Source of the DNA: Fibrobacteria bacterium
GTDB lineage: Bacteria; Fibrobacterota; Fibrobacteria; UBA11236
Direction: 5' to 3'
Assembly: GCA_025360005.1 (NCBI GenBank)
Contig: JANYDA010000001.1
Location: 87,144-151,143, forward strand
DNA: 64,000 nt
Shown: positions 15,008 through 57,412 of the stretch, one piece after another
Layout of the letters: every line of letters starts with the position of its first letter
How positions within the stretch are numbered: position 1 is the stretch's first letter
Program-made: the position numbers and the translations under genes
Notes under the pieces: model-generated
The model's database searches: none
Told to the model about the DNA's origin: nothing
The model's input: only the letters and a program-made list of their open reading frames with translations

Positions 15008-15035
15008 CGAGTGCCGAAATAAATATCTTATTGCG

Positions 15036-16295: not shown

Positions 16296-16308
16296 GGCGG
16301 ATGGGGAG

Positions 16309-40853: not shown

Positions 40854-41669
40854 ATGAAAGCCAATCAACCGATGTCGAAGGCTTGCTTCGCGATCCTCGC
40901 GCTGGCCTGCATAGCCTGGTGCCAGGCCCCCGGGTGTTCCGACGACTTCTCCAATCCGGATGTCGGCGGCGGCAAGACCTGGAAATTCGTGGACGCGGAC
41001 AGTTCCGTTTCCGGCGCCGCAACCGTTGCCGGCGGCATGTTGGATCTTTCGGGACGGGGCGCGGATATCTACGGCAAGAGGAACCAATTCGTCGCGGTCG
41101 ATCGGCAGGATGTCAAAGGCGATTTCGATGTCTCAGTGAAAATCACCTCCCAGACCAACAGCAACGGCTGGGCCCAAGCGGGCATATTGATCGCGAACAA
41201 TACCGAGAAGCTTGCCGAGGGGGGCTATTTCGTACTCGACGTTTCCCCCGCCAACGGCCAGAACGTTTTCTACGATGCCAAGGACAGCCTGGGCCAATTG
41301 GAAAGCCGCGTCGGCACCGTGGGCAAGACGGCCTATCCGGTCTGGCTGCGCGTCAAAAAATCGAACAAGAAATTTTCCGCCTGGTACAAAAATGCCGAAG
41401 CGGACGCCTGGAAGGTGGTTGCGGAAAACATCGCCCCGCAAGGCACGCTGGCCGATTCGCATATCGCCCTTATCAGCGTGAGCCATAATGTCGATATGGA
41501 TGCCCACACTCTTTTCGACGACTTCACCTGCCTTAACGGCACGGCTACGGGTTTGCGGGCTTACCCGCCTCTCCCCGAGTCTGTTCGGAGCCCCATGAAA
41601 GAGGCCGTGAACGCCCTGGGCCGAAGCGCGCCGGAGGCAACCGGCTTCCTGTGGAAGCGCAAAGGTTAA
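40854..41669 (+). CDS. Secreted lipoprotein with DUF1349-like (concanavalin-A-like) domain
   Basis: Signal peptide with Cys. …LDLSGRGADIYGKRNQFVAVDRQDVKGDFDVSVKITSQ…NGWAQAGILIAN…WLRVKKSNKKFSAWYKN… resembles the DUF1349/GH43-associated beta-sandwich. Confidence 0.6.
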   Translation: MKANQPMSKACFAILALACIAWCQAPGCSDDFSNPDVGGGKTWKFVDADSSVSGAATVAGGMLDLSGRGADIYGKRNQFVAVDRQDVKGDFDVSVKITSQTNSNGWAQAGILIANNTEKLAEGGYFVLDVSPANGQNVFYDAKDSLGQLESRVGTVGKTAYPVWLRVKKSNKKFSAWYKNAEADAWKVVAENIAPQGTLADSHIALISVSHNVDMDAHTLFDDFTCLNGTATGLRAYPPLPESVRSPMKEAVNALGRSAPEATGFLWKRKG

Positions 41670-42491
41670 ACGGGTATGGCTTGATCAGCGCGACGCCGTT
41701 CGGTCCTGCAACCGCTTTGCCTGATCCAGATGCGCAGCAACATGCACCCGCAGTTCGGCCCAGCGCTTTTTGACGGCATCGTTAACGGCATTGGGAACCA
41801 ACTGCGAATCGATGGTCTCCAGCGCTTTGGCATGGCCTTTTGCCATTGCGTCTATATAGGCATGCTCGAAGTCCTTGCCATCCAAGGAGGAAAGAGCCGC
41901 CAATTCCCCTGCGCCATCGCTGCGGAGTTGATCGACGCTTTCATTCGCCGCAAGAGCCACTTTCAATTTTTTAGCCAGCCTTTCGGTCTGGGCGGCATCC
42001 GCCGTATGTTGATCCAGGAGCATACCGGCATAAGCGGTCGCCTCGGGCCCCATCATCTTTTTTCCAGCCACGTTGGCCGCGGCCACCTCATTGCCGTCCA
42101 ACGTCAGGACCCACGCCAGGATTTGCGCGTCCGTGAATTTCTCGATCTGCGCGGGGGGCACGACCGTATCCGGAACCATGCCCGCGGCTGAGCCGGAGGG
42201 AGCTTGGGCTATGGAAGGGGGGGGCGGCAAAGACCGCGGCGGTGACGCAGGTCTGTCCTCAACAAACCTATTCGCCCGGGGGAGAACAAGCGCAATTGCG
42301 GGGTTTTCGTTTTTTTGGGGTGGAATCCAATCCGCGCAAGCCGGATGGTTCAAAAGGGCCCTTCCCCCTCGCATCGGCTTAAGCCTCTTGGGAAACTTTG
42401 CTGCGTTTTTTGCACCGCTTTGTCGGAATCGCATCCACGACGCGACCCCGGCTGGCCCTCCTACTGATACCATCAGGGAACGGAGTCCGGT

Positions 42492-43910
42492 ATGGGTATG
42501 AAAATGGGCGCGACACGAACCTTGATTTTGTTGGCGTTGGGAATGATCCGCGCGGCGACGGCGCGGGATTTCGTCCATCCGGGAGGCTTGCTGACGCAAC
42601 CGGATATCGATCGCATCAAGTCCTCCATCGCCGCGAAAACGGAACCCTATTCCCGCGCTTGGACGGCCTTCAATCAACGCGCGCCTTCCACGGGCCGGCA
42701 GCCCAGACCTTATGCCGTGCTTACCGATGCCGGCAATTCCGCCTCCGTGTATGCGATGCAGAACGATGGCCATGATACGTATGCGCTCGCGGTGTACTGG
42801 GCGCTTACCGGCAACGATGCGTACGCCGCCGCCGCGGTCAGGATGATCATGGGATGGGCCGCCGTCCTGGACGCGAAAAGCGGCACTCCCGTCGCCACCA
42901 TGAGGACCGGCATCGGCATCAACCAGATGATCAATGCGGCGGAACTGCTGCGCCATGCCAACGGAGGATATGCGGGATATACGGCGTCCGATATCGCCGC
43001 CACGGAAAGGATGTTGCGGATAGCCGTCTATCCGATCCTGCACTCCGCGTGGGGGAATGTTCCCGCCGCTTGCGGACCGCCCGGAGCGTGCCAGCTTCCC
43101 TATGGCGACGGCAATTGGGGGACCGCGGCATTGGCCGGCTTGATGGCCGGCGCGGTTTTTCTGGGTGATTCCGCCTGGTTCCAGGAGGCGGTGGAGGTAT
43201 ACAGGCATGGCAAGTGCCCTTCCGTGAACCGCTACATCCTTGCCGACGGCGTCTTTACCGGCGAAACCGCCGAGAGCGGCCGGGACCAAGGACATCCGCA
43301 ATTCGCCGTGGGCAATCTTCTCCAGATCGCGGAGATGGCTTGGAACCAGAACCTGGATCTGTACGGCGAAAGCGACAACCTGCTGTTGAAGGGCGTTGAG
43401 TATCTGGCCAAATACGGACTCGGAAATACCGTCCCCTATACGATCTTCGGTACCTGCCATGTTACCTACCCTTCCATCTCCTCCCAAAACCGGGGGGTTT
43501 GGTATCCCATCTATGAATTGGCCTGGAACCATTACCACAACCGCCGCGGGCTGGCAGTTCCTTACGCCGAGCAGGTGCGCTCGAAATACGCTCCGGAAGC
43601 TTCCGTCACCGACCAATTCGGGTTCGGCACCCTGTTATATACGCGTTCCTTTTCCCCGCAAGCGCCCCAAAGCATTGCGCGGCGATACGGCGGCATCCCG
43701 CTGTCGTCTCCGGAAGCATCGGCCCTTTCCTTTACGGATGCCGTAGGGAGGACCGTGATCCTGGCGCGAAGCGGAGCGTCGTATGCGCCGGATCGATCGG
43801 CCGCAGGGCCGATCTTTCCGTTACCGGCAACGCAGTCGAAAGCAAAACCCGGCCGGGGTAACGTCGGCGCTGCGCCCCAGGCAGCGGTAATTGACTCCAC
43901 CCGCCGCTAG
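42492..43910 (+). CDS. Alginate-lyase-family (PF05426-like) polysaccharide lyase, secreted; paralogue A
   Basis: Signal peptide; FVHPGGLLTQPDIDRIK…; GRDQGHPQFAVGNLLQIAEMAWNQNLDLYG…LLKGVEYLAKY. Paralogous to 53657-54928. The 643-aa antisense ORF 41685-43616 is a shadow ORF. Confidence 0.65.
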   Translation: MGMKMGATRTLILLALGMIRAATARDFVHPGGLLTQPDIDRIKSSIAAKTEPYSRAWTAFNQRAPSTGRQPRPYAVLTDAGNSASVYAMQNDGHDTYALAVYWALTGNDAYAAAAVRMIMGWAAVLDAKSGTPVATMRTGIGINQMINAAELLRHANGGYAGYTASDIAATERMLRIAVYPILHSAWGNVPAACGPPGACQLPYGDGNWGTAALAGLMAGAVFLGDSAWFQEAVEVYRHGKCPSVNRYILADGVFTGETAESGRDQGHPQFAVGNLLQIAEMAWNQNLDLYGESDNLLLKGVEYLAKYGLGNTVPYTIFGTCHVTYPSISSQNRGVWYPIYELAWNHYHNRRGLAVPYAEQVRSKYAPEASVTDQFGFGTLLYTRSFSPQAPQSIARRYGGIPLSSPEASALSFTDAVGRTVILARSGASYAPDRSAAGPIFPLPATQSKAKPGRGNVGAAPQAAVIDSTRR

Positions 43911-44020
43911 GCCGCATGCGATTGCCGGACCGACCGCATCTTGGATAACATCGGCCTGCCTGGGTGGAACCCGGAGGACGGGAATAGCACCGCCGATCCG
44001 GCCAAGAAGGATATTTCAGA

Positions 44021-46528
44021 ATGAGAAAATGGGTCCTGCTTATTCCGGCTGCCATCATCGCAAGCCGCGCGGAGGCCGCGCAGAAGGCGGGCGATTGGGA
44101 AACGCTGAAGCTGAGCTACTCGCAGCCTTCCTCGCCCAACGATTTCGGCGGCGTTCTCCCCATCGGCAACGGGAGGTTGGGAGCGAAGGTTTTCGGCGAT
44201 CCGGCCAACGAGCATTTGGATTTGAACGATGCCACTTTATGGGCCGGGGAACCGCATCCATCGGGCACCTCCCAGGACCGCCAAAAGCTCCTTGCTCTCC
44301 GCGCGGCGCTGGAGGCCCGTGATTTCGGGAACGCCAACGGCCTGGGAGGCCAGATGGGCCAAGGGAACAACTGGGCCTACCAACCTTTGGGAAGCCTGGA
44401 TCTCCAGGTGGACGGAACCGCCGGGTATTCCGGCTACAAGCGGGAGCTTGATCTGGACCGCGCCTTGATCACCGTAAGCTACACGGCCGGAGGGACCCTC
44501 TTTACCAGGCAAACCTTCGCAAGTTATCCCGACCAGGTTATCGTGATGCGGATATTCGGCAACCGCCCCGGAAAGGTGGGATTCACCGCCAAGCTGGCCA
44601 CGCAGTTGCAGGGGAAATACGCTTTGGACGGCGGCAATACGATGGTAGCGACGGGCCGGGCCCCCTACTATAACCGGGGCGGAACGGGGGGAACCGCGCA
44701 GTGGTCGCAGACGCGCGGCATGGGGTTCGAGTCCAGGTTGCGGATAGAGAACATGGGCGGCGCGATTTCACCGAATAGCGGGGGACTCCGCGTGGCCGGC
44801 GCCGATACCGCCGTGCTGATCTTTTCCGCCGCCACCAGTTTTAATGGTGTGGACAAGGATCCGGCGACGCAGGGAACGGATCCATCGCCCATCGCAATGA
44901 GGGCCCTGGACGCCGCTGCGGGCAAAAGCTATGACCAATTGCTGGCCGCCCACTTGTCGGATTGGCGGGACTTGTTCCGCAGGGTCTGGGTGGATATCAA
45001 CGGGGAAAAGCCCAACCGCTATGCCATGGCGTTCCAATGCTCCCGCTATAGCCTCATGTCCTGTTCGCGTCCCGGGCATGCCGCTCCCCGGAATGAGCAA
45101 GGGATCTGGAACCGGGATCTCCATCCCGCCTACGATGCCAATTATACCCTGAACGAAAATCCCGAGAAATTCTACTCCCTGGCCGAACCGGCCAACATCC
45201 CGGAGACCACGGAGCCTTTGCTGGCCTTCATAGCCAACCTGGCCCGCAACGGAGCGGCCACCGCCAAAGACGTTTACGGATCCAGGGGCTGGGTGGCGCA
45301 CCATAGATCCGATGTGTGGGCCATGACCGCTATCGCGGATGGCCCTTCGGACGCTTGCGTTTGGCCTGTGGGCGGCATCTGGCTTTGCCAACATCTGTGG
45401 GAGCATTTCGCTTTCGGTCTGGATACCGCCTATTTACGGGATTCGGCTTTCCCCTTGATGAAAGGCGCGGCCCTATTCGCTCTGGATCTGTTGGTCGATG
45501 ATCACAAGGGGCATCTGGTCACTTCCCCATCGATCTCTCCGGAGAACGGCTTCAAGAATCCCGTGGGCGGAGGCCGGGTCGCGCTGAGCCGGGGATCGAC
45601 GATGGATCTCGCTTTGATCCGCGAGCTGTTCGGCAATTGCCTCAAAGCCATGGATATCATCGGGGATGACCCCGCCCTGCGGAGCGAAATCCAAACCGCG
45701 CTCCCCAAGCTCCTCCCCTACGCAATCGGCAGCCAGGGCCAATTGCAGGAATGGTCGGAAGACTTCCAGGAAACCGAACCTACCCATCGCCATGCCTCCC
45801 ATTTGATCACGGTCTGGCCTCTGTCGCAAATAACCAAGCGGGCAACGCCGGATTTGTTCGCGGCGGCGCGCAAATCCCTGGAGTTGCGCGGCTCGGGAGG
45901 GTTCCACCCCGACAAAGCCGGCATGTGGGCGCGGCTCCAGGACGGCGATCGCGCCGCGGCCGCGTATGGCACCAATTGGCCTGCCCTGTACGAACAGCCT
46001 CCCGGAGCCATCGCGGAGATGCTGTTGCAAAGCCATACCGCGGACTTGGATCTGCTCCCGGCCTTGCCTTCCACCTGGGCGAGCGGAAGGGCGATGGGCC
46101 TGCGGGCCCGGGGAGGATTCGAGGTCGACATCGAATGGAATGCCGGACATCTTACGCGGGCGGCCATCCGATCCGCTTCCGGCCGCGCCCCCCAAGTGCG
46201 CATCCAAGGCGCCGTCGTCACGCTCCCCGATCCGCGCATCGCGATAACCACGGCCACTCCCGTGCGCGCGCCCGGCACAGGGGATCCTTCCGGATTCACG
46301 ATGGTAACTTTGTCCGACGGATACCGCATGGTGAATCCCTTTCCAGGTCCCTACCGGGCTTTGATCCTGGATAGCCGGGGAAAGCAAGTCAAACGGTTTT
46401 CCGGAAAGGGTCCGGCGATGTATTACTTTTCCAAAAGAGACATGCATCCAGGCGCCTACCTGCTCACTTATGAACTCGGGGACGGGAAGATCCGCGGCGC
46501 GCGGATACTACCCGTGGTTTTACCGTGA
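44021..46528 (+). CDS. Glycoside hydrolase family 95 (alpha-L-fucosidase-type) with C-terminal sorting-domain-like tail
   Basis: N-terminal GH95 signature …[33 protein letters not shown]…; 835 aa; signal peptide; ~80-aa beta-sandwich-like tail. Confidence 0.75.
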
Positions 46529-48855
46529 CCCGTTCGCCATGGTTGCCCTTCTTCGTTTGGAAAGGCCTGTTCATACTGGGTCTTTTCGCCGGGACAAAGG
46601 CGTGGTCGGCGGAAATCGATTCCAGGGAAGCGGAAGCCGGCTCGCTGGGAAACGGAGCCGCGCAGACCCCCGTTGCGAACGCCTCGGGCGGAGCCGGAGT
46701 TTCCGGCCTGGACCATGCCGGCGCTTACGCGCAGTGGGCCGACGTCGAGGGCGGAGCCGGAGGGGCTTGCGTTTTCCAAATCGTCTACGCATGCGCATCC
46801 CCCGCATCGGCCGTCATGAGCGTATATGCCAACGGCACCAGAACCCATCGCCTGACCTTCCCGGTTACCGGGAGTCCCGGAACGTTCGCAACGCTTACCG
46901 ATACCATCCCCTTGTATCCCGGGCGGGCCAATACGATCAAAATCCAGCATGACCCGGCCGACACCGGGGCCCAAATCGTGCTCGACAGAGTCGCCATCCT
47001 GGATCCCGTCCGCGAGAACCCGGATGTTTTCCAATTCATGATCCGGACCCCCGACTACGCCGCTTGGCTGTGGATCCCTCCCAAGGCCCCGTTCGTACGC
47101 GGTGTGGTCGTCGACAAATACAATCTCCTGGATCCGGCGATCGTGACCGATGCCTCCATCAGGAAAATCTGCGCGGAGGAAAAACTCGCGATTGCATACA
47201 TAATGGCCTTGAACGCAAACGCCCCGATGCTGAACCTGATGAACTTCGCGTACACGGCGGGAGCGGGCGATACCCTTTTGAACATCCTTTCCGGTCTCGC
47301 CAAAGCCTCCGGCTACCAGGAGGTCGCCCATGCTCCCATCATGACCATCGGCCATTCGGCCCAGGCGGGATTCGCGTGGCGGCCGGCCTATTGGGACAAG
47401 TCCCGCGTATTCGCGGAAGTCTCGATCAAGGCGATCCAACTGGGCGGTTATAACGGGGATAACATGGACGGCGTACCCGTTTTGCATATGGTGGGCGATT
47501 ATGATGAGTGGCAAATCAAGGACTACGATACCTACGGATGGAAATTCACCCAAACCGATTTGGGCTTGCGTGGAAACGGCGCCAACCTGGTCGCCACCGT
47601 GGTGGAATGGGGCGGCGGCCATTTTGAATTCTCCCAAGATGCGGGGAAATTGGTCGCCTTGTTCATCAAGAAGGCCGCGCAAGCGCGGATCCCGAATGCG
47701 GCGGCCATGACCAATCCCGTAACCTTGTTGCACATCAATGCGAACTCCGGTTGGCTGAACTCGGCCTACTACGATAACAGCCGCTCCTGGGAACCGAAGC
47801 CGACCGGCCAATACGACGGGGACGCAAAGAAGGCTTTCTGGTATTTCGATCAGGAGTATGCCTTTGGGTGCAGGAACTTCACCTTGGAAAGCAAGGGCGG
47901 GAAAAGGCAAATGGCCGCCTTCCTGACCAATGGGCAGCCCTCTCCGCAATATTCGGCCACCGCTTCCGCCGGGGCCATCGGCCCGCTGGACAATCTTATC
48001 CCGGAGGCGGACGGGGTAACTTTCCGGATACCTATGGCTTTTAGGCAATCGATTCCGGACTACCTGGCTCCCAACGGCGGCATGGCCTTGGAGCATGGGT
48101 CGGCCGCCCCCAATTTCAGGGTTATCGATGGCCCCCTGATCAAATTGTCGGAAGACAGATTCCGCATCGCCTACAACATCACGGCCTATTACAAATGGGA
48201 AACCTGGCTCGATGCCTATGCGCCTACGGACGGCGTTTTCGGATACATGCAGCAGCCGGCGACGCTGGACATCCCCAAGAATACCTCCGGCGCAAGCCAG
48301 ACCATCGCCTTCGGCAACCTGCCGGACATAACCGGCAATGCGGGAGAGATCACGCTGGATGGCCGCTCAAGCGCGGGAGCCCAGGTGGGATACTTCATCC
48401 TGAAAGGGCCCGCGGTGATACGCGACGGCAACAAACTTTCCTTGACGCAAATCCCGTCCCGAAGCAAGTTCCCGCTGGAAGTCACCGTAGTCGCCTACCA
48501 ATGGGGACGGAACACGGCCCCTCGCATGCAAACCGCGGCTCCGGTAGAGCGGACCTTCCGGATATTGACGCCTACGTCAATCCGGCCCGTTGCGGCCCTG
48601 CCGAGGTTGCAGGGGATGGCGGTGAAAAGAACGGGAAGGACCTTATCCGTTTCATTTTCATTGTCCCAGCCGGCTAGGATCGGCCAAAGCATTCTGGGCT
48701 TGACGGGCAGGATGGAATACGATTTGGGAACGATCGCGTATCCGCAAGGATGGCGCACCGTGGCCTGGGACGCCGGGATTTTCAGGAAGGGAAACCATAT
48801 CCTGGCCTTGAAAATCGGGGGGCAAACCTTCCGCAAAGTATTCACGCTGGATTGA
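46525..48855 (+). CDS. Secreted protein with N-terminal CBM6/CBM35-like carbohydrate-binding module and C-terminal sorting-domain-like tail
   Basis: Signal peptide; …[10 protein letters not shown]…[13 protein letters not shown]…IVLDRVAIL (CBM6-like). Large central region of unknown fold. ATGA overlap with the GH95 stop. Confidence 0.6.
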
Positions 48856-48869
48856 TAGGCTCCGGTTTT

Positions 48870-50285: not shown

Positions 50286-50321
50286 GGAGGAACCCTTTTG
50301 GAATCGGAGTGGACTTGCGCT

Positions 50322-51740
50322 TCAGGGCCCGGAAAGGCCGGCGCGCTCGGGTATTGGCAGGGCGCGGCCGTTGAGAATGAACCATCCAGGCTCGTGCCCG
50401 GGCGCCGGAAAGGTGAACGAGCCTTGATTGGCCCGGTCGATCCTGTCCATGCTTGCCTTGAGAGGCGAGGGCAAGGATGGCGATCCGCGCCGGATAGCCG
50501 TGGCCCGGGGAACCTGCAGATAGATTTGCACCCCGTTCTTACTCGATACCACGATGTCGGGGAATCCGTCCTTGTCCAGATCAGCCACTTGGAACTGCGT
50601 CCCCACGCCGGAGTGATCCGCTTTGATGACATAGTAGTCGAATTTCGGGTTGGCTCCCGGCGTGACCTTGACCCAGTACAATTCGGCCGGTTCCTGATCC
50701 CCCTTGGATCCGCTATGCGCCCACTTCCGCTTTCCGCCTACCACGTCCGGAATCCCGTCCCCGTCCAAATCCGCTTGGTACAAGGCGTGGTTGGTGAAAG
50801 GAACGGGGTTGATCATGTTCTGCTTCCAGGCATTGTTCCCCAGGTTCTCCACCCACCAGATTCCGGGGCCGTGGGAGGACGCGGAGATAAAATCCATCTT
50901 CCCATCCTGGTTGAAATCGTAGGGAAGCATATGGCTCATGGCGTTTCCGCCGTCGGTTTGCAGGATTGTCGCGTTGAGGAAATTCGCGGCGGTATACACC
51001 CAGGCTCCCGTACCGTTGGCAGGCTGTTTATACCATCCCAGCGAGTGCACCAGATCCGGTTTGCCGTCCCCGTCCAGATCGAAAACCCCCATGCCATGGC
51101 TGAACACATAGCTGTATTGGCCTTTGCCGGCCGGGCAGATTTTGGTTTCCACGAAATTGCCGGCATTGTCGGGCGTCCAATAGCTCCAGCTGTTGTCGCC
51201 ATAGTTGGAGGTCACCAGGGATTTTTTCCCGGAGCCGTTGATGTCCCCGAACCAGGATTGTTCTACGCCGTAGGAATACCCCTGGCCCGCTCCCAGCACG
51301 TGCGCGGTCCAGGACGAATTGGTTTTGCTTCCCTTGGGGTTCTCGTACCAAGTGGGATGATCCCCGTGATAGGGCACCACCAACTCGTCGGGCCAGCCGT
51401 CTCCGTTGAAATCCGCCACGAACGCGCCGTGGCAATTACTATACCGGCCGGGATCGTAATAACCGTTGGCGGCGCGCGCATTCGTCCCCACCGCGGGATG
51501 GATGGGATGCCGGATCCAAGCGCCGGCCATTTGGGGATTGGGCGATTCATACCAGTAATCGCCCACGTACAGATCGTTCTTCCCATCCCCATCCACGTCC
51601 GCAACGCCCACCCCTTCGGAAACGAACAGGCTGTCCACCACGTAATGATCGAATTGGATGGGACCGCTGATAAGCCGTTCCGCATTCGCCGCGCAGCATA
51701 GGATGCCTACGGTCGAGAAGATCAAATCCACGTTTCGCAT
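50322..51740 (-). CDS. FG-GAP/VCBS-repeat beta-propeller protein, secreted
   Basis: Six Ca-binding-type repeats (DVDGDGKNDL, DFNGDGWPDE, DLDGDGKPDL, DFNQDGKMDF, DLDGDGIPDV, DLDKDGFPDI); signal peptide. Confidence 0.75.
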   Translation of the reverse strand: MRNVDLIFSTVGILCCAANAERLISGPIQFDHYVVDSLFVSEGVGVADVDGDGKNDLYVGDYWYESPNPQMAGAWIRHPIHPAVGTNARAANGYYDPGRYSNCHGAFVADFNGDGWPDELVVPYHGDHPTWYENPKGSKTNSSWTAHVLGAGQGYSYGVEQSWFGDINGSGKKSLVTSNYGDNSWSYWTPDNAGNFVETKICPAGKGQYSYVFSHGMGVFDLDGDGKPDLVHSLGWYKQPANGTGAWVYTAANFLNATILQTDGGNAMSHMLPYDFNQDGKMDFISASSHGPGIWWVENLGNNAWKQNMINPVPFTNHALYQADLDGDGIPDVVGGKRKWAHSGSKGDQEPAELYWVKVTPGANPKFDYYVIKADHSGVGTQFQVADLDKDGFPDIVVSSKNGVQIYLQVPRATAIRRGSPSLPSPLKASMDRIDRANQGSFTFPAPGHEPGWFILNGRALPIPERAGLSGP

Positions 51741-51753
51741 TCGCTTCCCTTGG

Positions 51754-53436
51754 TCAGAATATGATTTTGGCCGTCACTACGCCTTCGGCCGCGACAACCT
51801 TCAATAAATAAAGACCGGGACGCAATGAGGCGGGCACTCGGTACTCCTGCGGAATGGTTCCCTGGACCGAGAACGCCAGCACCCCGTTCGGATCCCAGAG
51901 TGAAATGGAGTGGGCGCCGGATGAACCGATGGAAATGAGCCGCGATCGCATTCGCAGCCAGCCCGCATCCCTGAGACCCAGGATGGGCGTAGCATTCGCC
52001 GCCGGGAAAAGTCCAGCGTCCTTGCAAGCGCCGGTATAGCGTATCCGGAACAGCCCTCCCTCATAGGACACGAAATACAGAACGCCATCCGGACCATGCT
52101 GCATATCCACGATTTGACCCGGATAGGAAAGCTGCGCGAATATTTTCACATCGCCCGTGATACTGTCCAAACTCGGGTTCATGCTCCAAAGGTGGAATCC
52201 ATAGGAAACATTCCGGCAATCCGCCACCAGCCATTTCCGATCGAATTGCGGCGGGAATCCCGATGGGGGCAGATTCCTCCCGTCATACCGGAACAAAGGT
52301 CCCGAGGTGGGGCATCCCTTGGTGCGCTCATACAGGGCGTTGTGGTTGGGCGGAAGCTTGTGCACGGGGACATCGGGATTGTTGTTGACGATATTGTTCC
52401 TGTCGTGGATGGGCGGGATGGGGATCCCATACAGCGTCCCGCTGCCCGCGCCGTTCCTGGCCAAATGCTCGGGACCCATTTCGTAACGCGCCGCGAAGTA
52501 AGGCCAACCGCCGTAGAAGGGTTCTTTGATAACGTCGAACTCTTCCAGGGGAACCGCATTGTTGGGATTGGTATTCGGATCCGGATCGGGACCGAACTCC
52601 GAAAACAGCATGCGGCCGCTTACGGAATCCGAATGGAGGGTGTAGACGTTCCGATTGCCTTTGATATAGAGTTCCGGACGCACTTTGGCGGAATCGGAAT
52701 AGTCGTCCGCGAGCAACGGATTACCGGAAGCGCGGTATTTGGCCGCGAAGAACTCGCCGAAATTCCCGGGCGGTACGCCGTATCCCCTTGCGCCATTGTC
52801 GGGATGGATGCGCAGGATGGCGCCGCGCAGGTCCTTGGTATTCCCTGGCCCCAGTTCCATGGTTTGATTGTCTCCCACGGCGATCCACAAATTCCCTTTG
52901 GCATCGAAGCTCATTACGCCGCCGGTATGCCAATGATTGCGGCCGCTGGGGATTTTCAGGAGGATTTTTTCCGAAGCCGGATCGATGTTTCCGTCCGGGG
53001 CCAGGGCGAACCTGGAGATACGGAACGAGGACTCGGCGGGTTGCCCGCTTTTATTCTGGAAGGAGTAGTTGAAATAGATGAATCGGTTTCGTTGAAAATC
53101 CGGATCCAAGGCTATTCCAATCAAACCATCTTCGTTACTGGTCGCCGCGGGCAGATTGCCGATTGTGGTCACCTGGCCGGTGGCCCCGTCGAATTTCCGC
53201 ACGGCACCGGACTTTTCGGTGAAGTAAACCTCGACATTATGATCCGGCCGTTCGGCAACGGTCAATTTGGTGGGGCCGTTGGCCCCCGTCAACGGTTTGG
53301 CCAGGTTCTCGATCAGGAAGTTCTGGTCGCTCGCCTGGCATCCCTTGTACGTCCCCAAATCCACCGCCCGGGCAAGGCCCGCGAAAGAGAATAGGATGAA
53401 ACAAGGCCACAGGGCGCGTTTGCCGACTTCATACAT
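51754..53436 (-). CDS. PQQ-dependent soluble sugar dehydrogenase-family beta-propeller with C-terminal sorting-domain-like tail; paralogue of 23788-25212
   Basis: …LIGIALDPDF…, GAILRIHPDNG (sGDH GK/AILRI motif); signal peptide; terminal …PGLYLLKVVAAEGVVTAKIIF typical of T9SS-type CTDs. Confidence 0.7.
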   Translation of the reverse strand: MYEVGKRALWPCFILFSFAGLARAVDLGTYKGCQASDQNFLIENLAKPLTGANGPTKLTVAERPDHNVEVYFTEKSGAVRKFDGATGQVTTIGNLPAATSNEDGLIGIALDPDFQRNRFIYFNYSFQNKSGQPAESSFRISRFALAPDGNIDPASEKILLKIPSGRNHWHTGGVMSFDAKGNLWIAVGDNQTMELGPGNTKDLRGAILRIHPDNGARGYGVPPGNFGEFFAAKYRASGNPLLADDYSDSAKVRPELYIKGNRNVYTLHSDSVSGRMLFSEFGPDPDPNTNPNNAVPLEEFDVIKEPFYGGWPYFAARYEMGPEHLARNGAGSGTLYGIPIPPIHDRNNIVNNNPDVPVHKLPPNHNALYERTKGCPTSGPLFRYDGRNLPPSGFPPQFDRKWLVADCRNVSYGFHLWSMNPSLDSITGDVKIFAQLSYPGQIVDMQHGPDGVLYFVSYEGGLFRIRYTGACKDAGLFPAANATPILGLRDAGWLRMRSRLISIGSSGAHSISLWDPNGVLAFSVQGTIPQEYRVPASLRPGLYLLKVVAAEGVVTAKIIF

Positions 53437-53656
53437 ATTCCCAACCTAGCGGTTTTAATGGTCAGGACGGGGATATTTTCCTCGGCAGGAAGGAAAATCG
53501 CTGCCCGATACGCAGCGGATTCTCATGCGGCGCGCCGTTTATGCCCTTGCTCTTTCCGGCCAAGTCTTAACTTCCTGCATTCAGGCGCGAGGCATGGCCA
53601 CGCTTACGCGCCCACCCGGGGAAATCACGGCCGTGTTCGATCGAGTGCGATATTTC

Positions 53657-54928
53657 ATGAAGAAACCGTTCCTTCGCCGTTACCTCCCCTATTCCCTGCT
53701 GCTGTTGGGATCCACCCTGCATACCGCCGAAGCCTTCACCCATCCGGGTCTGTTGGATACCCGCCTGGATTTGCAACGCATGAAAAAGGAAGTGGCCGCT
53801 GGCACGCATCCTTACCTTGACGGCTGGAACAAATTGCGCCAGGATCCGCACGCCTCCCCCGCTTACAATCCGCTTCCCTGGGATACCGTCACGCGCACCC
53901 TGGGCGCGGTAGGCACGGGCTTTCAGGATTTGAACTCGGACGCCCTGGCGGCCTATTACAACGCCATCGCATGGAACATCACCGGTGACAGCGCCCGCGC
54001 CCGCAAGTCCGTGGAAATCCTGAACGCCTGGTCCGGCCGGTTGCAGGCTATCGAAGGCGACGGCGATAAGTATTTGGTGGCCGGCATTTACGGATCGCAA
54101 CTGCTCTTCGCCGCGGAAATCATCCGGCATACCTATGCCGGTTGGAAACCGGCGGATATAAACCGCTTCACGGATCTGATGCTGCGGGTCTTCTATCCGC
54201 TGAACCATGATTTCCTGATCCATCACAACGGTTCGCGCGTGGATCATTATTTCGCCAATTGGGATGCCTGCCAAATGCTGGCCATCGCGGCCTTGGGGGT
54301 GTTTCTCGACGACTCGGCCAAATACCTGGAAGCCACGGAATATTTCAAATCCGGCCGCGGCAACGGTTGCATCCTGAAGGCGGTATGGGACGGGGAAACC
54401 GGCCAATTGCAGGAAAGCGGACGCGATCAGGCGCATGCCCAATTAGGCATCGGGCTGCTGGCCGAGCTTTGTGAAATCGCCTGGAGCCAAGGGGACGATC
54501 TGTACGGATTCGCCGGCAACCGCCTGCTAAAAGGTTTCGAGTACACCGCCGGCTATTTACTGGGCAACGACGTCCCCTTCAAGATCTATTCCGATTCCAG
54601 CCGCACCTTTACCGTCATCTCCGCGGTGAATCGGGAACAGCGCCGGCCCATTTACGAAATGGTCTGGAACCATTACGAAAACCGCCGCGGCACCCCGGCA
54701 CCCTACACCAGACAATTGGCCGAGGCGATCCGACCCGAAGGCTACCATGCCGATCATCCCGGCTTCGGAACCTTGTTCTTCACTTTGCCGCGCCTTCCCA
54801 TCGCCATGCAAAAGCCGCGTCCCATGGGGGCCCGGCCCGGAGAAGAAACCTTTGTCGACGCCTTGGGCAAAATAAGCCCAGGCAAACTTTCCAGGAAGGA
54901 ATATCCATGTCCCAAAACAAGCGGTTAG
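53657..54928 (+). CDS. Alginate-lyase-family polysaccharide lyase, secreted; paralogue B
   Basis: The track ORF starts at 53525; likely start MKKPFLRRYLPYSLLLLGSTLHTAEA (signal peptide). FTHPGLLDTRLDLQRMKK…GRDQAHAQLGIGLLAELCEIAWSQGDDLYG…LLKGFEYTAGY parallels paralogue A. Confidence 0.65.
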   Translation: MKKPFLRRYLPYSLLLLGSTLHTAEAFTHPGLLDTRLDLQRMKKEVAAGTHPYLDGWNKLRQDPHASPAYNPLPWDTVTRTLGAVGTGFQDLNSDALAAYYNAIAWNITGDSARARKSVEILNAWSGRLQAIEGDGDKYLVAGIYGSQLLFAAEIIRHTYAGWKPADINRFTDLMLRVFYPLNHDFLIHHNGSRVDHYFANWDACQMLAIAALGVFLDDSAKYLEATEYFKSGRGNGCILKAVWDGETGQLQESGRDQAHAQLGIGLLAELCEIAWSQGDDLYGFAGNRLLKGFEYTAGYLLGNDVPFKIYSDSSRTFTVISAVNREQRRPIYEMVWNHYENRRGTPAPYTRQLAEAIRPEGYHADHPGFGTLFFTLPRLPIAMQKPRPMGARPGEETFVDALGKISPGKLSRKEYPCPKTSG

Positions 54929-56043
54929 CCCCCAAAAAACTCTGGTTGATTTTGCTGGGCGCCTTGGCGTCATCGGCGGCGGCCGCGGAAGATTCGGCGT
55001 GGGTGCAAATTTTCAACGGCAAGGATATGTCCGACTGGGATATCAAATTCCAACATCATCCTCTGAATGAAAATTTCCGCAACACCTACAAGGTGGTCAA
55101 TGGCCTCTTGACCGTCGACTACGGCGCTTGGCCGGACTTTCCCAGCTTCGGCCATGCGGCTTACAAGGTGCGGCCTTTCACCCATTACCTGTTGCGGTCC
55201 GAATACCAGGTGTGGGGAAAGCAGGCTCCGGGAGGCCCCGGTTGGGCCGTGGAGAACAACGGTTTCATGCTCCACTCCCAATCCATGGCGAGCATGGGCC
55301 TGGATCAGGACTTCCCCATCAGCCTGGAAGCCCAGCTATTGGGCCCCCACAATGGTTCGGGCTCGCCGAATGCCAAAGGCACCATGAATCTGTGCACGCC
55401 CGGCACGGCCTTCTATACCACGCCCAGCGGCGGCAGCGTTGTGACCAGCCATTGCCTGTCGGCGACGGCGAATCCGCGCGCTCCCGTGGATACGGGGTGG
55501 GAACGGGTTTCGGCGCTGGTGCTCGCGGATTCCCTGCTCCAGTTCCGAGTGGACGATAAATCCGTGCTGGAATTCTACCGGCCGGTCTATTGGAAGGGGA
55601 ATGTGTCCGGAGATACCCTCCATGCCCCCGCAAACGGCACGCCCTTGACCGGCGGATATATCACCATCCAAGCGGAAAGCGCGCCTTACCGGTTCAGGAA
55701 AATCGAAGTCTTGAATCTGGTGGGCTGCATGGATAAAAAGTCTCCCGCCTACCGCTCCTATTTCGTGAAAAATGATCCGGCCGCCTGCTCGGCCACGGTC
55801 TTGGATGCGCCGGGGGCATCCGCCTCCTGGGGCCTCAGCATGGAAGAAGATGCGGACGGCATCTCCCTGCGCGGATCCCAGGCCGGCATCCTGGAATTGC
55901 GTGCGCTTTCCGGAGCCATCCTGCAACGCTATCCGGAGGCGCAATCCTTCCAAAGGCATATCCGGCTTCCTGGCCGGGGAGTGTACCTGATAACGTGGAA
56001 AACCGGGCGCGGAACCTGGATTAAGAAGTGGGGAATGCCATGA
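54907..56043 (+). CDS. DUF1080 (3-keto-disaccharide hydrolase-like) secreted protein with sorting-domain-like tail
   Basis: …WVQIFNGKDMSDWDIKF…ENNGFMLHSQ…GWERVSALVLADSLLQFRVDDKSVLEF…GYITIQAESAPYRFRKIEV is the classic DUF1080 jelly-roll. Signal peptide. Confidence 0.8.
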   Translation: MSQNKRLAPKKLWLILLGALASSAAAAEDSAWVQIFNGKDMSDWDIKFQHHPLNENFRNTYKVVNGLLTVDYGAWPDFPSFGHAAYKVRPFTHYLLRSEYQVWGKQAPGGPGWAVENNGFMLHSQSMASMGLDQDFPISLEAQLLGPHNGSGSPNAKGTMNLCTPGTAFYTTPSGGSVVTSHCLSATANPRAPVDTGWERVSALVLADSLLQFRVDDKSVLEFYRPVYWKGNVSGDTLHAPANGTPLTGGYITIQAESAPYRFRKIEVLNLVGCMDKKSPAYRSYFVKNDPAACSATVLDAPGASASWGLSMEEDADGISLRGSQAGILELRALSGAILQRYPEAQSFQRHIRLPGRGVYLITWKTGRGTWIKKWGMP

Positions 56044-56924
56044 AGTATTCGATGAACATGTTGCTATGGAGCGATTGCGTTCTGGAGGAAAAATATTTCC
56101 CTCTCTTTGATCGGCTTAAGGAAATGGGATTCGACGGGATTGAAATCCCCGTTTTCGATCCGCAACCGGATAAATACGCGGCCCTGGGCCGGAGGCTGGA
56201 CGCCGTGGGATTGGAACGCACGGCGGTAACGGTAGCCGGTCGGGAAGCGAATCCCATCAGTCCTGATCCCGCCAACCGTAAACGCGCGGTGGAAAACCTC
56301 AAGAAAGTATTGGACTGCTGCCAAAGCGGCGGGATGGAGATATTGGTCGGACCCTACTATGCCGCCATCGGCGAGTTCACGGGCCAAGCGCCCACCGGGG
56401 ACGAATGGAAATGGGGATTGGAAAGCATGCGGCAGGTAGCGGAGTACGGGCGGAAACTGGGCGTAGGCCTGGCGCTGGAATTCCTTAACCGCTTCGAGAT
56501 CTATTTCCTCAACTGCGCCGCCGATACGGACCGGTTCGTCCGGGAAATCGGCATTCCAGGCTGCGGCAGCCTCTACGATACTTTCCACGCCAACATCGAG
56601 GAAAAATCGGCCTCCCTTGCCATCGAAAAAATCGCGGGAACGTTGCGGCAAGTGCATATCTCCGAAAACGATCGCAGCACCCCGGGACTAGGAAACGTAG
56701 CCTGGGAGGAAACCTTTCTTTCCCTGCAGCGGGTGGGGTATGATGGCTGGCTTACCATCGAAGCGTTCGGCATGGCCATGCCCGCCTTGTCGGCGGCGAC
56801 CAAGATTTGGCGCCGGATGTTCCAGGACGAAGAGAAGCTCGCCAGGGACGGCCTGGCCTTCATGAAAAAAATGGCCGCGGGCGGACCCGGAAGGAGCGCC
56901 CTTTTGGAAAAGCCGCTCCCCTGA
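56040..56924 (+). CDS. Sugar phosphate isomerase/epimerase (xylose-isomerase-like TIM barrel)
   Basis: …FDGIEIPVFD…GLALEFLNRFE…HISENDRSTPGLGNVAWEETFLSLQRVGYDGWLTIEAF… ATGA overlap with the DUF1080 stop. Confidence 0.85.
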   Translation: MKYSMNMLLWSDCVLEEKYFPLFDRLKEMGFDGIEIPVFDPQPDKYAALGRRLDAVGLERTAVTVAGREANPISPDPANRKRAVENLKKVLDCCQSGGMEILVGPYYAAIGEFTGQAPTGDEWKWGLESMRQVAEYGRKLGVGLALEFLNRFEIYFLNCAADTDRFVREIGIPGCGSLYDTFHANIEEKSASLAIEKIAGTLRQVHISENDRSTPGLGNVAWEETFLSLQRVGYDGWLTIEAFGMAMPALSAATKIWRRMFQDEEKLARDGLAFMKKMAAGGPGRSALLEKPLP

Positions 56925-56944: not shown

Positions 56945-57412
56945 TCACCCGGGATTCCCATGGGATTTGTCGATGCTTGCTTGCACCATGCCCAGGAAAT
57001 TCGCAACGTCCACGCTCAGGAAAGGTTTCGCGAAAAGGCCATCCATCCCCGCTTTCATGCAACGATCCCGGTTTTCCTCCATCGCATCGGCCGTGACCGC
57101 GAAAATGGGAATCCGCTTTCGGCCCAGGAGAATTTCTTTTTTCCGGATCGCCATGGTGGTTTCGTAGCCATCCATGCCGGGCATCTGGCAGTCGAGTAAA
57201 ACGGCCGCGATGCCTCCCTGGTCCAGGAGTTCCAGGGCTTCAGCGCCGTCTTGGGCTATCTTCACGGACCAGCCCTGTTTCTGGAAAAGCATGGCGACGA
57301 TTTTCTGGCTCAAATAATTGTCTTCAGCCAGGAGGATTGTCTTTGCGACTGAGGAAGGCAACGCTGCAGAGGAGGACGCCGGCATCCGTTTGGAATCACC
57401 CTGGTTTTCCAC
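56945..57412 (-). CDS. Single-domain response regulator (CheY-like receiver)
   Basis: …TILLAEDNYLSQKI…AVLLDCQMPGMDGYETT…KPF… Divergent from the hybrid HK operon. Confidence 0.85.
   Translation of the reverse strand: MENQGDSKRMPASSSAALPSSVAKTILLAEDNYLSQKIVAMLFQKQGWSVKIAQDGAEALELLDQGGIAAVLLDCQMPGMDGYETTMAIRKKEILLGRKRIPIFAVTADAMEENRDRCMKAGMDGLFAKPFLSVDVANFLGMVQASIDKSHGNPG

Follow-up and report, generated by a model that had tools for sequence, protein, structure and literature searches.

Closest described systems

Fibrobacter succinogenes, which belongs to the same phylum-level lineage as the organism studied here, carries cell-surface glycoside hydrolases with a 'basic terminal domain / Fpm-1' that has been proposed to act as a T9SS C-terminal domain (CTD) (PMC6851124). 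As in the present locus, its CAZymes combine a signal peptide with a highly basic C-terminal domain of ~70-90 aa, TIGR04183 recognises only some of these domains, SusC/SusD are lacking, and products are proposed to enter via beta-barrel proteins. The organism analysed here differs in being uncultured and high in GC (~60%), and its cargo comprises GH95, a GSDH dehydrogenase and DUF1080 where that of F. succinogenes comprises cellulases. Its enzymes are also linked genetically to one particular porin family that has no annotation, and the window, the whole 64-kb stretch of DNA that was analysed, encodes no T9SS component.

The SusC/SusD polysaccharide-utilisation loci of Bacteroidota, including T9SS-linked ones, resemble the locus in having CAZymes side by side (GH, PL-like, esterase-like, CBM), hybrid two-component sensors on the flanks and tasks divided between the cell surface and the periplasm. 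However, the pair of SusC, a TonB-dependent transporter, and SusD is absent from the window ORFs that were scanned, and uptake is predicted to proceed via a passive 16-stranded-type porin. With a probability of roughly 60%, the locus is read as one for polysaccharide utilisation in a bacterium of Fibrobacteres type (FCB superphylum), relying on enzyme export and a dedicated porin, not on a SusC/SusD transporter.

Gene content and transcription units

The locus and its flanks comprise the following genes:

36583..40662, minus strand: MASE1/PAS hybrid histidine kinase flanking the locus (Pfam domains)
40854..41669, plus strand: standalone secreted concanavalin-A-like protein, 271 aa, with an N-terminal hydrophobic signal-like segment
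41685..42179, minus strand: DUF4142 protein, 164 aa (Pfam, 74.8 bits)
42492..43910, plus strand: PLa, a PF05426 (alpha/alpha) toroid (Pfam, 72.5 bits)
44021..46528, plus strand: GH95 alpha-L-fucosidase/alpha-L-galactosidase-type hydrolase, signal peptide (Pfam catalytic domain, E 1.8e-110)
46525..48855, plus strand: 776-aa modular protein, signal peptide
48870..50285, minus strand: OMP471, porin-like outer-membrane beta-barrel (predicted model)
50322..51740, minus strand: FG-GAP/VCBS beta-propeller, signal peptide, basic C-terminal extension (Pfam FG-GAP_3, 106 bits)
51754..53436, minus strand: GSDH-family (soluble PQQ-type sugar dehydrogenase) beta-propeller, signal peptide (Pfam GSDH, 93.9 bits)
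53657..54928, plus strand: PLb, a PF05426 paralogue of PLa (Pfam, 52.4 bits)
54907..56043, plus strand: DUF1080 / 3-keto-disaccharide-hydrolase family protein (3keto-disac_hyd), signal peptide (Pfam, 66.1 bits)
56028..56924, plus strand: ketose 3-epimerase-like TIM barrel, cytoplasmic, no signal peptide (Pfam AP_endonuc_2, 129.9 bits)
56945-57412: REC gene
57786-60158: hybrid kinase

Pfam annotation bears out the gene content and coordinates given in the earlier note. The genes encode the two PF05426 paralogues, GH95, the 776-aa protein with its CBM-like module, the 471-aa barrel, the FG-GAP propeller, GSDH, DUF1080 and the TIM-barrel epimerase. A contig of an independent Logan assembly carries an identical locus. 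The description of a secreted, glycan-active cluster lacking SusC/SusD likewise stands: the proteins bear signal peptides, and no TonB-dependent receptor, SusC or SusD occurs among the scanned ORFs of the window. Nor does the locus contain sulfatases or a GFO/IDH/MocA dehydrogenase.

Three tight transcription units are resolved, PLa-GH95-esterase-like, GSDH-FG-GAP-porin and PLb-DUF1080-epimerase, with internal spacings of -22 to +110 bp; the gene overlaps and short gaps indicate operons. Every product of these units carries a signal peptide except the epimerase. The PLb unit diverges from the GSDH operon, and although the long PLb ORF runs from 53525, its signal peptide fits an internal ATG at 53657. 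A 643-aa ORF overlapping PLa was rejected as an artefact.

The 271-aa concanavalin-A-like protein is an uncertain member of the system: its GH43_C2 match in Pfam is weak (18.2 bits, below the cut-off of 22.7), and neither PF18962 nor a tail model built from related loci finds an export tail in it. The DUF4142 gene, overlooked earlier and likewise predicted at 164 aa on the Logan contig, probably lies outside the system. The MASE1/PAS kinase, the REC gene and the hybrid kinase are regarded as candidate regulators by inference only. The organism is judged Fibrobacteres-like from other genes of the window: three DUF4423 genes and an RND pump 80% identical to one of a 'Fibrobacteres bacterium' MAG, the next named matches (~60%) coming from other FCB phyla.

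The lyase-like paralogues

PLa and PLb, the first genes of their respective units, are paralogues (36% identity, E 3e-69) with a fold like that of the PL5/PL35/PL38 lyases; A1-III, AlgL, BoPL38 and GAGase II represent the closest known system. In contrast to these enzymes, the PLa/PLb family has no significant sequence match among solved lyases (best profile E 4e-3, partial), and in a low-confidence alignment with PL5 the catalytic His and Tyr correspond to an invariant Trp (W209) and an invariant His (H268), respectively, so that the canonical pair appears to be replaced. The family is also widespread in soil bacteria, frequent among soil Actinomycetes, Paenibacillus, Planctomycetes and Chitinophagaceae, and occurs there joined to ricin, AbfB or LamG modules. 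Because the family is remote in sequence from characterised alginate lyases, seemingly lacks the His/Tyr pair, is widespread in soil bacteria and is accompanied by no sulfatases, the proposed alginate- or fucoidan-like substrate is not borne out; alginate in particular is unproven, backed by no evidence in this analysis.

GH95 and the 776-aa protein

GH95 contains three Pfam domains, the catalytic domain together with its N- and C-terminal domains, and the start of the 776-aa gene overlaps its stop codon by 4 nt. The 776-aa protein is organised as follows:

aa 33-156: CBM-like module
aa ~165-685: unannotated core carrying a G-H-S278-A motif of serine-hydrolase type and H366, then an Ig-like part
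aa ~700-776: basic tail

The protein gives only sub-threshold CBM13-like and CBM6 matches, and what was earlier labelled a 'CBM protein' consists for the most part of a putative esterase-like domain. The core family comprises 1025 representatives, S278 and H366 are invariant, and alpha/beta-hydrolase profile matches are marginal (1qlw, E 1e-3); judged from sequence, the core resembles a serine α/β-hydrolase without annotation, putatively esterase-like. Moreover, 5 of 149 homologues join the core to a PLb-like lyase domain, and PLb is 39-44% identical to these fused lyase domains; such lyase-esterase fusions indicate a functional link between two genes of the locus.

OMP471, a predicted member of an unannotated porin family

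OMP471, the last gene of the GSDH-FG-GAP-OMP unit, has no family match in Pfam or NCBIfam and models as a 16-stranded-type porin; it represents a previously unannotated outer-membrane porin family. The closest known system is formed by the substrate-specific porins of catabolic operons (OprB, chitoporin ChiP, LamB/ScrY), from which the family differs in sharing at most 10% sequence identity and in its larger size (~450-550 aa), with long low-confidence loops. The barrel is co-operonic with FG-GAP and GSDH (gaps of 36 and 13 bp), as claimed, although 'periplasmic' is too simple a label for these enzymes, since GSDH bears an export tail.

Porin neighbourhoods were compared in eight distinct loci besides the window, all of which place carbohydrate genes beside the porin:

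LacI-GH27-porin-GalT-GalK-SSF, a galactoside catabolic operon
GSDH-porin-CBM6
three tandem porins-DUF1080-GSDH
epimerase-GSDH-like-FG-GAP-porin (L087)
porin-DUF1080(CTD)-DUF1080-dihaem cytochrome-GSDH-GFO (L088, a Fibrobacteria MAG)
GH43/GH20/arabinofuranosidase context
apiosidase/SASA plus porin-DUF1080-DUF7133-DUF1080-porin
DUF1080-porin

In L087, which holds the closest relative, the FG-GAP gene is likewise kept directly upstream of the porin (49% and 50% identity to the window proteins, respectively), and a 67%-identical homologue of the TIM barrel lies upstream of the GSDH-like, FG-GAP and porin genes. The locus in its entirety shows no conserved synteny, GH95 relatives in 80 genomes having other neighbours; only the GSDH/FG-GAP/DUF1080/epimerase/porin part recurs elsewhere.

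C-terminal tails

A tail model built exclusively from the tails of related loci was searched against all 215 window ORFs. The candidate sorting tails are:

nt 46304-46525, plus strand: GH95 T9SS-like tail, aa ~762-835 (tail models)
nt 51757-51960, minus strand: GSDH T9SS-like tail, aa ~493-560 (tail model and TIGR04183 score)
aa ~302-378 of the DUF1080 protein: probable T9SS-like tail, marginal support

The relatives-only model detects the GH95 tail at E 1.2e-11 (E 1.4e-4 with a model from the Fibrobacteria MAG only) and the GSDH tail at E 1.1e-10, and places a marginal match at the correct position of DUF1080 (aa 330-366, E 0.078). The 776-aa tail is not detected among the 215 ORFs and is aligned by eye only, while PLa, PLb and FG-GAP end in basic extensions (pI 9.6-11.3) with no sorting domain, that of PLa being disordered (AlphaFold pLDDT ~30), and no frameshift rescues them. 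The claim of at least five sorting-domain tails was accordingly an overcount. GH95 relatives in genomes align only to residues 1 to ~745. GSDH aligns over its full length, tail included, to the GSDH proteins of L084 and L088.

Matching to the curated models, run as a check, formally failed: no tail gives a PF18962 match even at E<=10, and TIGR04183 scores the GSDH tail at 18.9 bits (E 1.1e-3) and the DUF1080 tail at 12.2 bits (E 0.14) against a cut-off of 23. Because no tail reaches either cut-off, the T9SS assignment rests on transitive evidence. The DUF1080 protein beside the porin in L088 contains PF18962 and passes TIGR04183 at 38.1 bits, and TIGR04183 scores over the orthologous tails grade from this passing value down through 21.5, 20.9, 18.9, 18.6 and 18.5 to 12.2. 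A joint profile of 14 tails matches, over its full length, the CTD of F. johnsoniae NucA in the SprA/PorV translocon structure 8GLK (E 3.9e-7), as well as the RgpB CTD (E 5e-3); when the Fibrobacteria MAG sequences are removed, solved T9SS CTDs are matched only marginally (E 0.03-0.3). By profile comparison, GH95 and GSDH are shown to end in a basic beta-sandwich-type domain of ~70 aa of the same family as a bona fide T9SS type-A CTD of a related Fibrobacteria genome, and DUF1080 probably ends in such a domain too. The T9SS character of the tails is thereby upheld, their number and their recognition by curated models are not. Their pI of 10-11, compared with 4.8-7.7 for the mature parts, agrees with the proposal that basic C-terminal domains on Fibrobacteres glycoside hydrolases are T9SS signals (PMC6851124).

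Oxidative components and alternative readings

DUF1080 proteins of Bacteroides thetaiotaomicron (BT2157) cleave 3-keto-glycosides and are encoded near TIM-barrel and GFO/IDH/MocA dehydrogenases (PMC8121099; bioRxiv 10.1101/2024.03.25.586180). The BT2156-BT2160 system resembles the present one in the translational coupling of DUF1080 to a TIM barrel of the xylose-isomerase-like kind, and in relatives (L082, L085, L088) GFO/IDH/MocA genes occur close to the porin. One possibility, considered rather unlikely, is that porin, GSDH-type dehydrogenase and DUF1080, with FG-GAP and epimerase in some loci, form a self-contained oxidative, non-Koshland sugar or glycoside module to which the GH95, lyase and esterase genes are mere neighbours. 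A surface or periplasmic quinoprotein would oxidise a sugar or glycoside, DUF1080 would act as a 3-keto-glycoside lyase/hydratase, and products would enter by the porin. This reading is favoured by the activity of the B. thetaiotaomicron DUF1080 proteins, by the GFO/IDH/MocA genes of relatives, by the porin adjoining DUF1080 in four independent loci and, in five loci other than the window, adjoining GSDH or DUF7133 or lying close to one of them, by a tailed dihaem cytochrome that adjoins GSDH in L088, and by GH95 neighbourhoods elsewhere that lack this locus. However, the window locus has a GSDH quinoprotein-type enzyme (PDB relatives 3das, 2ism and 2g8s, E ~1e-9) instead of a GFO/IDH/MocA dehydrogenase, and known GSDH-family enzymes oxidise at C1, not C3. 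In addition, the TIM barrel is closer to D-tagatose and L-ribulose 3-epimerases (E 7e-34) than to the 3-keto-glucoside enzyme 6wn6 (E 4e-15), and it is cytoplasmic whereas DUF1080 is exported, with a probable tail that sets it apart from the BT2156-BT2160 system. Finally, PLb and DUF1080 overlap by 22 nt, a translational coupling that ties the lyase family to the core.

Less probable still is a loose set of unrelated secreted proteins, in which the tails would be ordinary beta-sandwich modules, Ig-like or FlgD-like, that serve for binding or spacing and play no part in sorting, and OMP471 a general diffusion porin. Against this, here and in relatives the tail domain invariably forms the very C-terminus of proteins that have a signal peptide and belong to unrelated catalytic families, and one orthologous tail passes both TIGR04183 and PF18962; the operon structure, the carbohydrate genes beside the porin in all eight other loci compared and the lyase-esterase fusions weigh against it as well. 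An exopolysaccharide-production cluster akin to the alginate operon, in which polymer export goes along with an AlgL-type lyase in the periplasm and a barrel of the AlgE type, is highly improbable, since no glycosyltransferase, polymerase or Wza/Wzc-type gene lies in or near the locus, GH95, DUF1080 and the epimerase are catabolic, and one porin family member sits inside the galactoside catabolic operon.

Proposed mechanism

In the preferred reading, a polysaccharide-utilisation locus built on enzyme export and a dedicated porin, the tailed enzymes would leave the cell through a T9SS and work on or close to its surface, on what may be a uronic-acid-containing heteropolysaccharide. There, GH95 would strip fucose or L-galactose, the esterase-like core would probably remove acyl groups, and GSDH and DUF1080 would oxidise or transform sugars. 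Fragments would then diffuse through the OMP471 porin; PLa, PLb and FG-GAP, all three lacking a sorting tail, would work in the periplasm, and the epimerase would handle an imported ketose. Modelled as a porin, OMP471 would apparently fill the uptake role that SusC/SusD plays in Bacteroidetes.

Gene content and transcription units

The locus at 40854–56924 encodes a set of predicted secreted enzymes and one outer-membrane barrel, and Pfam searches bear out the gene list of the earlier note at the coordinates below, with the addition of a short DUF4142 gene that the earlier note had overlooked.

Features of the locus (window coordinates, strand, description)
41685–42179, minus: DUF4142 protein, 164 aa
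42492–43910, plus: PLa, lyase-like paralogue, PF05426 (Alginate_lyase), Pfam 72.5 bits
44021–46528, plus: GH95 protein with three domains, catalytic domain E 1.8e-110 (Pfam)
46525–48855, plus: 776-aa protein, CBM13-like and CBM6 matches, both sub-threshold
48870–50285, minus: OMP471, 471-aa barrel, no family
50322–51740, minus: FG-GAP propeller (Pfam)
51754–53436, minus: GSDH560, GSDH-family dehydrogenase (Pfam)
53525/53657–54928, plus: PLb, lyase-like paralogue, PF05426 (Alginate_lyase), Pfam 52.4 bits
54907–56043, plus: DUF1080/3keto-disac_hyd protein (Pfam)
56028–56924, plus: xylose-isomerase-like TIM barrel (Pfam)

The reading frames are backed by GC3, and gene calls on an independent Logan assembly contig (run SRR23617308) give an identical set. 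Gene spacing divides the locus into three units. The first, on the plus strand, joins PLa, a 110 bp gap, GH95 and, through a 4-nt overlap, the 776-aa protein; the minus-strand unit comprises GSDH, a 13 bp gap, FG-GAP, a 36 bp gap and the barrel; and the second plus-strand unit runs from PLb through a 22-nt overlap into DUF1080 and through a 16-nt overlap into the TIM barrel. A 220-bp spacer separates the divergent GSDH and PLb units. In a promoter and terminator scan the counts are not above the shuffled expectation; the window has a GC content of about 60%. N-terminal signal-like sequences are present on every product of the locus except the TIM barrel. For PLb the start is most likely the internal ATG at 53657, which would give a normal signal peptide. 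None of the TonB_dep_Rec, Plug, SusC or SusD families occurs among the scanned window ORFs, in agreement with the earlier description of the locus as lacking a SusC/SusD pair.

The GH65-like N-terminal, catalytic and C-terminal domains of GH95 score 189.8, 370.1 and 71.7 bits, all above gathering, and its nearest relatives are 55% identical (Mucilaginibacter, Opitutia), the Mucilaginibacter match spanning residues 5–742. GSDH560 matches PF07995 with 93.9 bits, only over profile positions 11–157 of 332, and resembles, chiefly through its N-terminal blades, the bacterial soluble aldose dehydrogenases 3das, 2ism and 2g8s (E ~1e-9). Of solved structures, D-tagatose and L-ribulose 3-epimerases are the closest to the TIM barrel (E 7e-34), the 3-keto-glucoside 4-epimerase 6wn6 being far more distant (E 4e-15).

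A second GSDH-family protein of 474 aa lies elsewhere in the window at 23788–25212 (plus strand). It begins with a signal peptide and ends in a basic tail of pI 10.4 with the strand motif 'YRVFSLDGKALGRIEF', on which the tail models described below are not significant (E ~1).

Lyase-like paralogues and the 776-aa protein

PLa and PLb are true paralogues (36% identity over 412 aa, E 3e-69); both exceed the PF05426 gathering score and adopt the (alpha/alpha) toroid fold. Searches with phmmer against PDB sequences return no match for either, and sequence and profile comparison found no characterised or solved relative of the family. Its 201 matches are annotated 'alginate lyase family protein' and are distributed over Mucilaginibacter, Chitinophagaceae (whose members bear PF18962 tails), Verrucomicrobia, Planctomycetes, Streptomyces-type actinomycetes and Paenibacillus, and fusions to ricin-B, AbfB, LamG or DUF1349 modules are frequent. 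A 41-sequence family profile reaches solved lyases marginally (PL17 N-terminus, E 4e-3; 3nfv, E 0.025; PL5 A1-III, E 0.3). In fold the two proteins resemble PL5, PL35 and PL38 lyases, with PL40, PL15, DS-epimerase, heparinase II and PL17 coming after these. Non-lyase toroids (AGE epimerases, GH88, GH105) score at most 16, with a clear gap below the lyases. The alternative that these proteins are non-CAZy toroids is therefore unsupported at the fold level.

The catalytic positions are seemingly altered. Invariant in the family are W209 and the motif E261-x-G-R264-D-Q-x-H268. In the profile alignment to 3nfv (PL38-type), which has low posterior probability, 'NNHG' stands opposite the family's 'aNWd' (W209) and 'ELARTT..GY' opposite 'EsGRDQ..aH', so that R264 is kept and the Tyr position is occupied by H268. 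Trp and His thus seem to take the places of the canonical lyase His and Tyr. The family may plausibly act as lyases on a uronate polymer, whereas alginate specificity is unsupported, given the remoteness from solved lyases and the apparent substitutions. Another contig of run SRR23617308 (locus L091, 912–2348) encodes one more paralogue resembling PLa, the third (69% identical over the protein by BLASTP, 68% by tblastn), with an NAD-binding dehydrogenase and a protein of the prepilin-type N_methyl family alongside; its presence in the same sample indicates that the lyase family is expanded in the organism or community.

The 776-aa protein had been described as a CBM protein. Its CBM13-like and CBM6 matches are sub-threshold, and its core forms a putative esterase-like family. 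An exhaustive search with residues ~165–685 yields 1025 cluster representatives, mostly stand-alone proteins of about 540 aa. In an alignment of 48 core sequences, G-H-S278-A and H366 are invariant, and the core profile matches alpha/beta-hydrolases marginally, with the nucleophile elbow and His aligned both for the esterase 1qlw (E 1e-3) and for epoxide hydrolases; a few core homologues match Abhydrolase Pfam families. Single-sequence searches of the 776-aa and DUF1080 proteins against PDB sequences give nothing meaningful. Five of 149 core homologues are fusions, in both domain orders, with a PLb-like lyase domain (39–44% identical to PLb), and a chondroitinase-B (PL6) domain is present in one homologue. 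The Rosetta-stone link is an argument for a shared substrate of the lyase-like family and the esterase-like core, a polymer with uronate and probably acyl groups, and also for cooperation between the units of the window locus.

C-terminal tails and type IX secretion

By eye, the GH95, 776-aa, GSDH and DUF1080 proteins end in segments of about 70–80 aa with '...D..G+.V...' and 'PG.Y.L' strands, placed at the extreme C-terminus of proteins with a signal peptide, both termini having been read directly. The TIGR04183 curated cut-off of 23 bits is unreached by GSDH560 (18.9 bits, E 1.1e-3) and DUF1080 (12.2 bits, E 0.14); at E<=1 the model finds nothing in GH95, the 776-aa protein, PLa, PLb or FG-GAP, and PF18962 (Por_Secre_tail) does not match any of eight isolated 95-aa tails even at E<=10. 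At the curated level the window tails match neither model, which is the outcome the earlier note had named as counting against its sorting domains.

The same kind of tail occurs in the loci of relatives, on GSDH, DUF1080, CBM6, GH27 and dihaem cytochrome proteins. There the highest TIGR04183 score, 38.1 bits, belongs to a DUF1080 protein that PF18962 also matches in precomputed annotation (Fibrobacteria MAG GCA_015232855.1); scores of 21.5, 20.9, 18.6 and 18.5 bits follow. An in-register alignment of fourteen tails shows two glycines to be invariant. An initial HMM built from four window tails was circular, and MAFFT mis-registered the tail of the 776-aa protein; a leave-out model was used instead, built from ten tails of other loci only and searched against all six-frame ORFs of the window that reach 100 aa (215 in number). 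Among these ORFs it recovers GH95 (E 1.2e-11) and GSDH (E 1.1e-10), detects DUF1080 marginally at the correct position (E 0.078) and leaves the 776-aa tail undetected. With only the four Fibrobacteria-MAG tails as its basis, a model likewise recovers GSDH (E 1.1e-4) and GH95 (E 1.4e-4). Homology of the tails thus extends to two or three of the locus proteins.

Against the PDB, the 14-tail profile matches 8GLK chain D over its whole length (E 3.9e-7); in that structure the chain represents the type-A CTD of NucA in its complex with the SprA/PorV translocon of F. johnsoniae (PMC10994853). RgpB CTD entries are matched at E 5e-3 to 0.04. In a control without the MAG tails, the NucA CTD match drops to E 0.026 and solved-CTD matches fall at E 0.026–0.9. 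The top PDB match of the tail profiles is to the NHL repeats of Drosophila Thin, 6d69 (E 3.7e-11 and 2.8e-12). It consists of repeated partial matches to a 'v.vfD..G..v' strand pair over only ~30–40 columns and was judged to be no domain homology, although such cross-matches could mislead automated annotation of these tails.

All the tails, among them the extensions of PLa, PLb and FG-GAP that lack the domain, have pI values of 9.6–11.3, compared with 4.8–7.7 for the mature parts. In this basic character they resemble the 'basic terminal domain' of F. succinogenes, a proposed T9SS signal that TIGR04183 recognises only in part (Raut et al., PMC6851124). The PLa tail has an AlphaFold pLDDT of ~30, so no folded domain is predicted there; a sorting domain lost from the lyase tails by frameshift was rejected, as no alternative frame continues one.

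Collectively, there is good support from profile comparison for reading the GH95 and GSDH tails as divergent T9SS type-A CTDs; the DUF1080 tail probably belongs to the same class and the tail of the 776-aa protein possibly does. The earlier figure of at least five sorting tails was accordingly an overcount, with two well supported, one probable and one possible. The 64-kb window holds no T9SS machinery genes (SprA/Sov, PorV, PorU, GldK-N).

An unannotated porin family with carbohydrate-related neighbourhoods

OMP471 has a signal peptide and a C-terminal aromatic beta-signal, and it models as a closed porin-like barrel of the 16-stranded type, within the 16–18 strands of diffusion porins. It has no Pfam match at E<=0.01 and no NCBIfam match at E<=1, and all of its homologues (310/310) are unannotated, some of them in a 'Fibrobacteria bacterium' MAG. 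The neighbourhoods of these homologues are the most informative new result of the analysis.

Gene order around porin homologues in relatives
L082/L083 (3.75-Mb contig): LacI – GH27 alpha-galactosidase (tailed) – porin – GalT – GalK – SSF symporter
L084: PA14 – GSDH (tailed) – porin – CBM6 (tailed)
L085/L086: GFO_IDH_MocA – HEAT – three tandem porin paralogues – DUF1080 (tailed) – GSDH
L087: ketose-epimerase homologue (67% identical) – DUF7133/GSDH-like (tailed) – FG-GAP (49% identical) – porin
L088 (Fibrobacteria MAG): porin – DUF1080 with PF18962 – DUF1080 – dihaem cytochrome – GSDH – GFO_IDH_MocA
L089: porin amid GH43, GH20, arabinofuranosidase and Pel9A-like genes
L092: GSDH, SASA esterase, apiosidase, then porin – DUF1080 – DUF7133 – DUF1080 – porin
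L093: DUF1080 – porin

The neighbourhoods are carbohydrate-related in all eight distinct loci, and GSDH/DUF7133 or DUF1080 genes lie adjacent to or near the porin in six of the eight. The L087 porin is the closest OMP471 homologue (50% identity), and content and order there are as in the window minus-strand unit. Loci anchored on GH95 in 80 genomes have no neighbours in common with the window locus. As the porin recurs with GSDH/DUF1080 while GH95 loci share nothing, the conserved core consists of porin, GSDH-like protein and DUF1080. The FG-GAP and epimerase genes join this core in some loci, and the GH95, lyase and esterase genes are its variable part.

Tandem amplification of the porin is seen in L085/L086, with three adjacent paralogues (L085 6740–11563), and the two L092 porins (8001–9356 and 13540–15057) flank the DUF1080–DUF7133–DUF1080 block.

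Proposed function and substrate

In the arrangement that we propose, GH95, GSDH, DUF1080 and perhaps the esterase-like protein would be exported by the T9SS and act at the cell surface, and the cleavage products would diffuse through the porin. The untailed lyase-like and FG-GAP proteins would act in the periplasm, epimerisation would take place in the cytoplasm, and the flanking hybrid kinases may regulate the locus. Among the rivals, a role in exopolysaccharide export was rejected, as no glycosyltransferase, polymerase or Wza/Wzc-type gene was seen at or around the locus and GH95, DUF1080 and an epimerase are catabolic. For the substrate, no description narrower than a heteropolysaccharide with fucose or L-galactose, uronate and probably acyl groups is warranted; bacterial exopolysaccharides of the colanic-acid kind and pectic RG-type glycans would be examples. 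Nothing points specifically to alginate or fucoidan, the substrates suggested earlier, and the locus contains no sulfatases.

A more speculative and, in our estimation, rather unlikely reading takes the recurrent grouping of porin, GSDH-type quinoprotein and DUF1080, joined in some cases by FG-GAP and a ketose 3-epimerase, as a module for oxidative, non-Koshland glycoside cleavage at the cell surface without nicotinamide cofactors. A T9SS-displayed dehydrogenase and a DUF1080 lyase/hydratase would open glycosides extracellularly, where NAD is unavailable, and the oxidised products would enter through the dedicated, hitherto unannotated porin family; in the same lineage, the PF05426 lyase family with its His/Trp substitution would also be paired with a serine-esterase family that is new. 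DUF1080 proteins of B. thetaiotaomicron cleave 3-keto-glycosides, with a TIM-barrel protein and GFO/IDH/MocA dehydrogenases alongside (PMC8121099; bioRxiv 10.1101/2024.03.25.586180). Compared with this BT2156–BT2160 pathway, the window locus has the DUF1080 and TIM-barrel genes but no GFO/IDH/MocA gene, and its TIM barrel is nearest to ketose 3-epimerases instead. In L088, an SO2930-family dihaem c-type cytochrome (9155–10522, minus strand) with a T9SS-like tail (TIGR04183 18.6 bits) adjoins the tailed GSDH and might accept electrons from the dehydrogenase outside the cell.

Other features of the window

A CzcA-type RND efflux operon (15036–20399) encodes an OEP, an HlyD-type adaptor and an AcrB-family pump. 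The pump is 80% identical to a 'Fibrobacteres bacterium' MAG protein, the next named matches (~60%) being from Bacteroidota, Chlorobi and Ignavibacteriales; from the best matches of this one protein we infer a host within the FCB group that is Fibrobacterota-like. A XerC/D-type tyrosine recombinase (22675–23643, plus strand) is encoded between this operon and the second GSDH gene.

Three DUF4423 paralogues are located at 9706–10587 (minus), 11455–12381 (minus) and 30531–31388 (plus), the third overlapping the start of a secreted CarboxypepD_reg/LamG protein (31385–32749, plus). A DUF4423 and DUF2341/LamG pair is also found beside the porin loci L084 and L085/L086, and the DUF4423 and LamG-protein pair may be a lineage-specific regulator–effector pair. 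The segment 2195–8922 encodes an MBOAT (AlgI-like) protein, a weakly DltD-like 371-aa protein and an AMP-binding enzyme, with an MMPL transporter on the opposite strand; this content points to a lipid or polymer being acylated or exported and appears unrelated to the glycan locus. A 260-aa protein without a family match (13127–13909, plus) ends in ...LSPGLILGF, resembling an outer-membrane beta-signal, and may be a small barrel. Within 60524–63438, a long FapA ORF (61153–63438) overlaps the preceding histidine-kinase ORF by ~450 nt; its Pfam match starts at residue 306, so the true FapA start is probably downstream.

Significance

T9SS-tailed CAZymes without SusC/D have already been proposed for Fibrobacter (PMC6851124), and the overall logic of the locus is thus known. 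What appears new is a porin family that lacks annotation and is linked genetically to GSDH, DUF1080 and glycosidase genes, an altered-site PF05426 subgroup with its fusion partner, an unannotated esterase-like family, and tails too divergent for curated models. Since curated models miss such tails, T9SS cargo in Fibrobacterota-like genomes is probably under-counted. The PF05426 subgroup and the esterase-like core (about 1000 cluster representatives), being found fused, probably act on one substrate. Current concepts stand, and the tails, the porin family and the two enzyme families could each improve the annotation of many metagenomic genes. The neighbourhoods of the large unannotated porin family mark it as a putative sugar-uptake channel. 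In FCB bacteria outside Bacteroidota, the coupling of secreted CAZymes to uptake is poorly understood, and the locus provides a concrete, testable arrangement for it.
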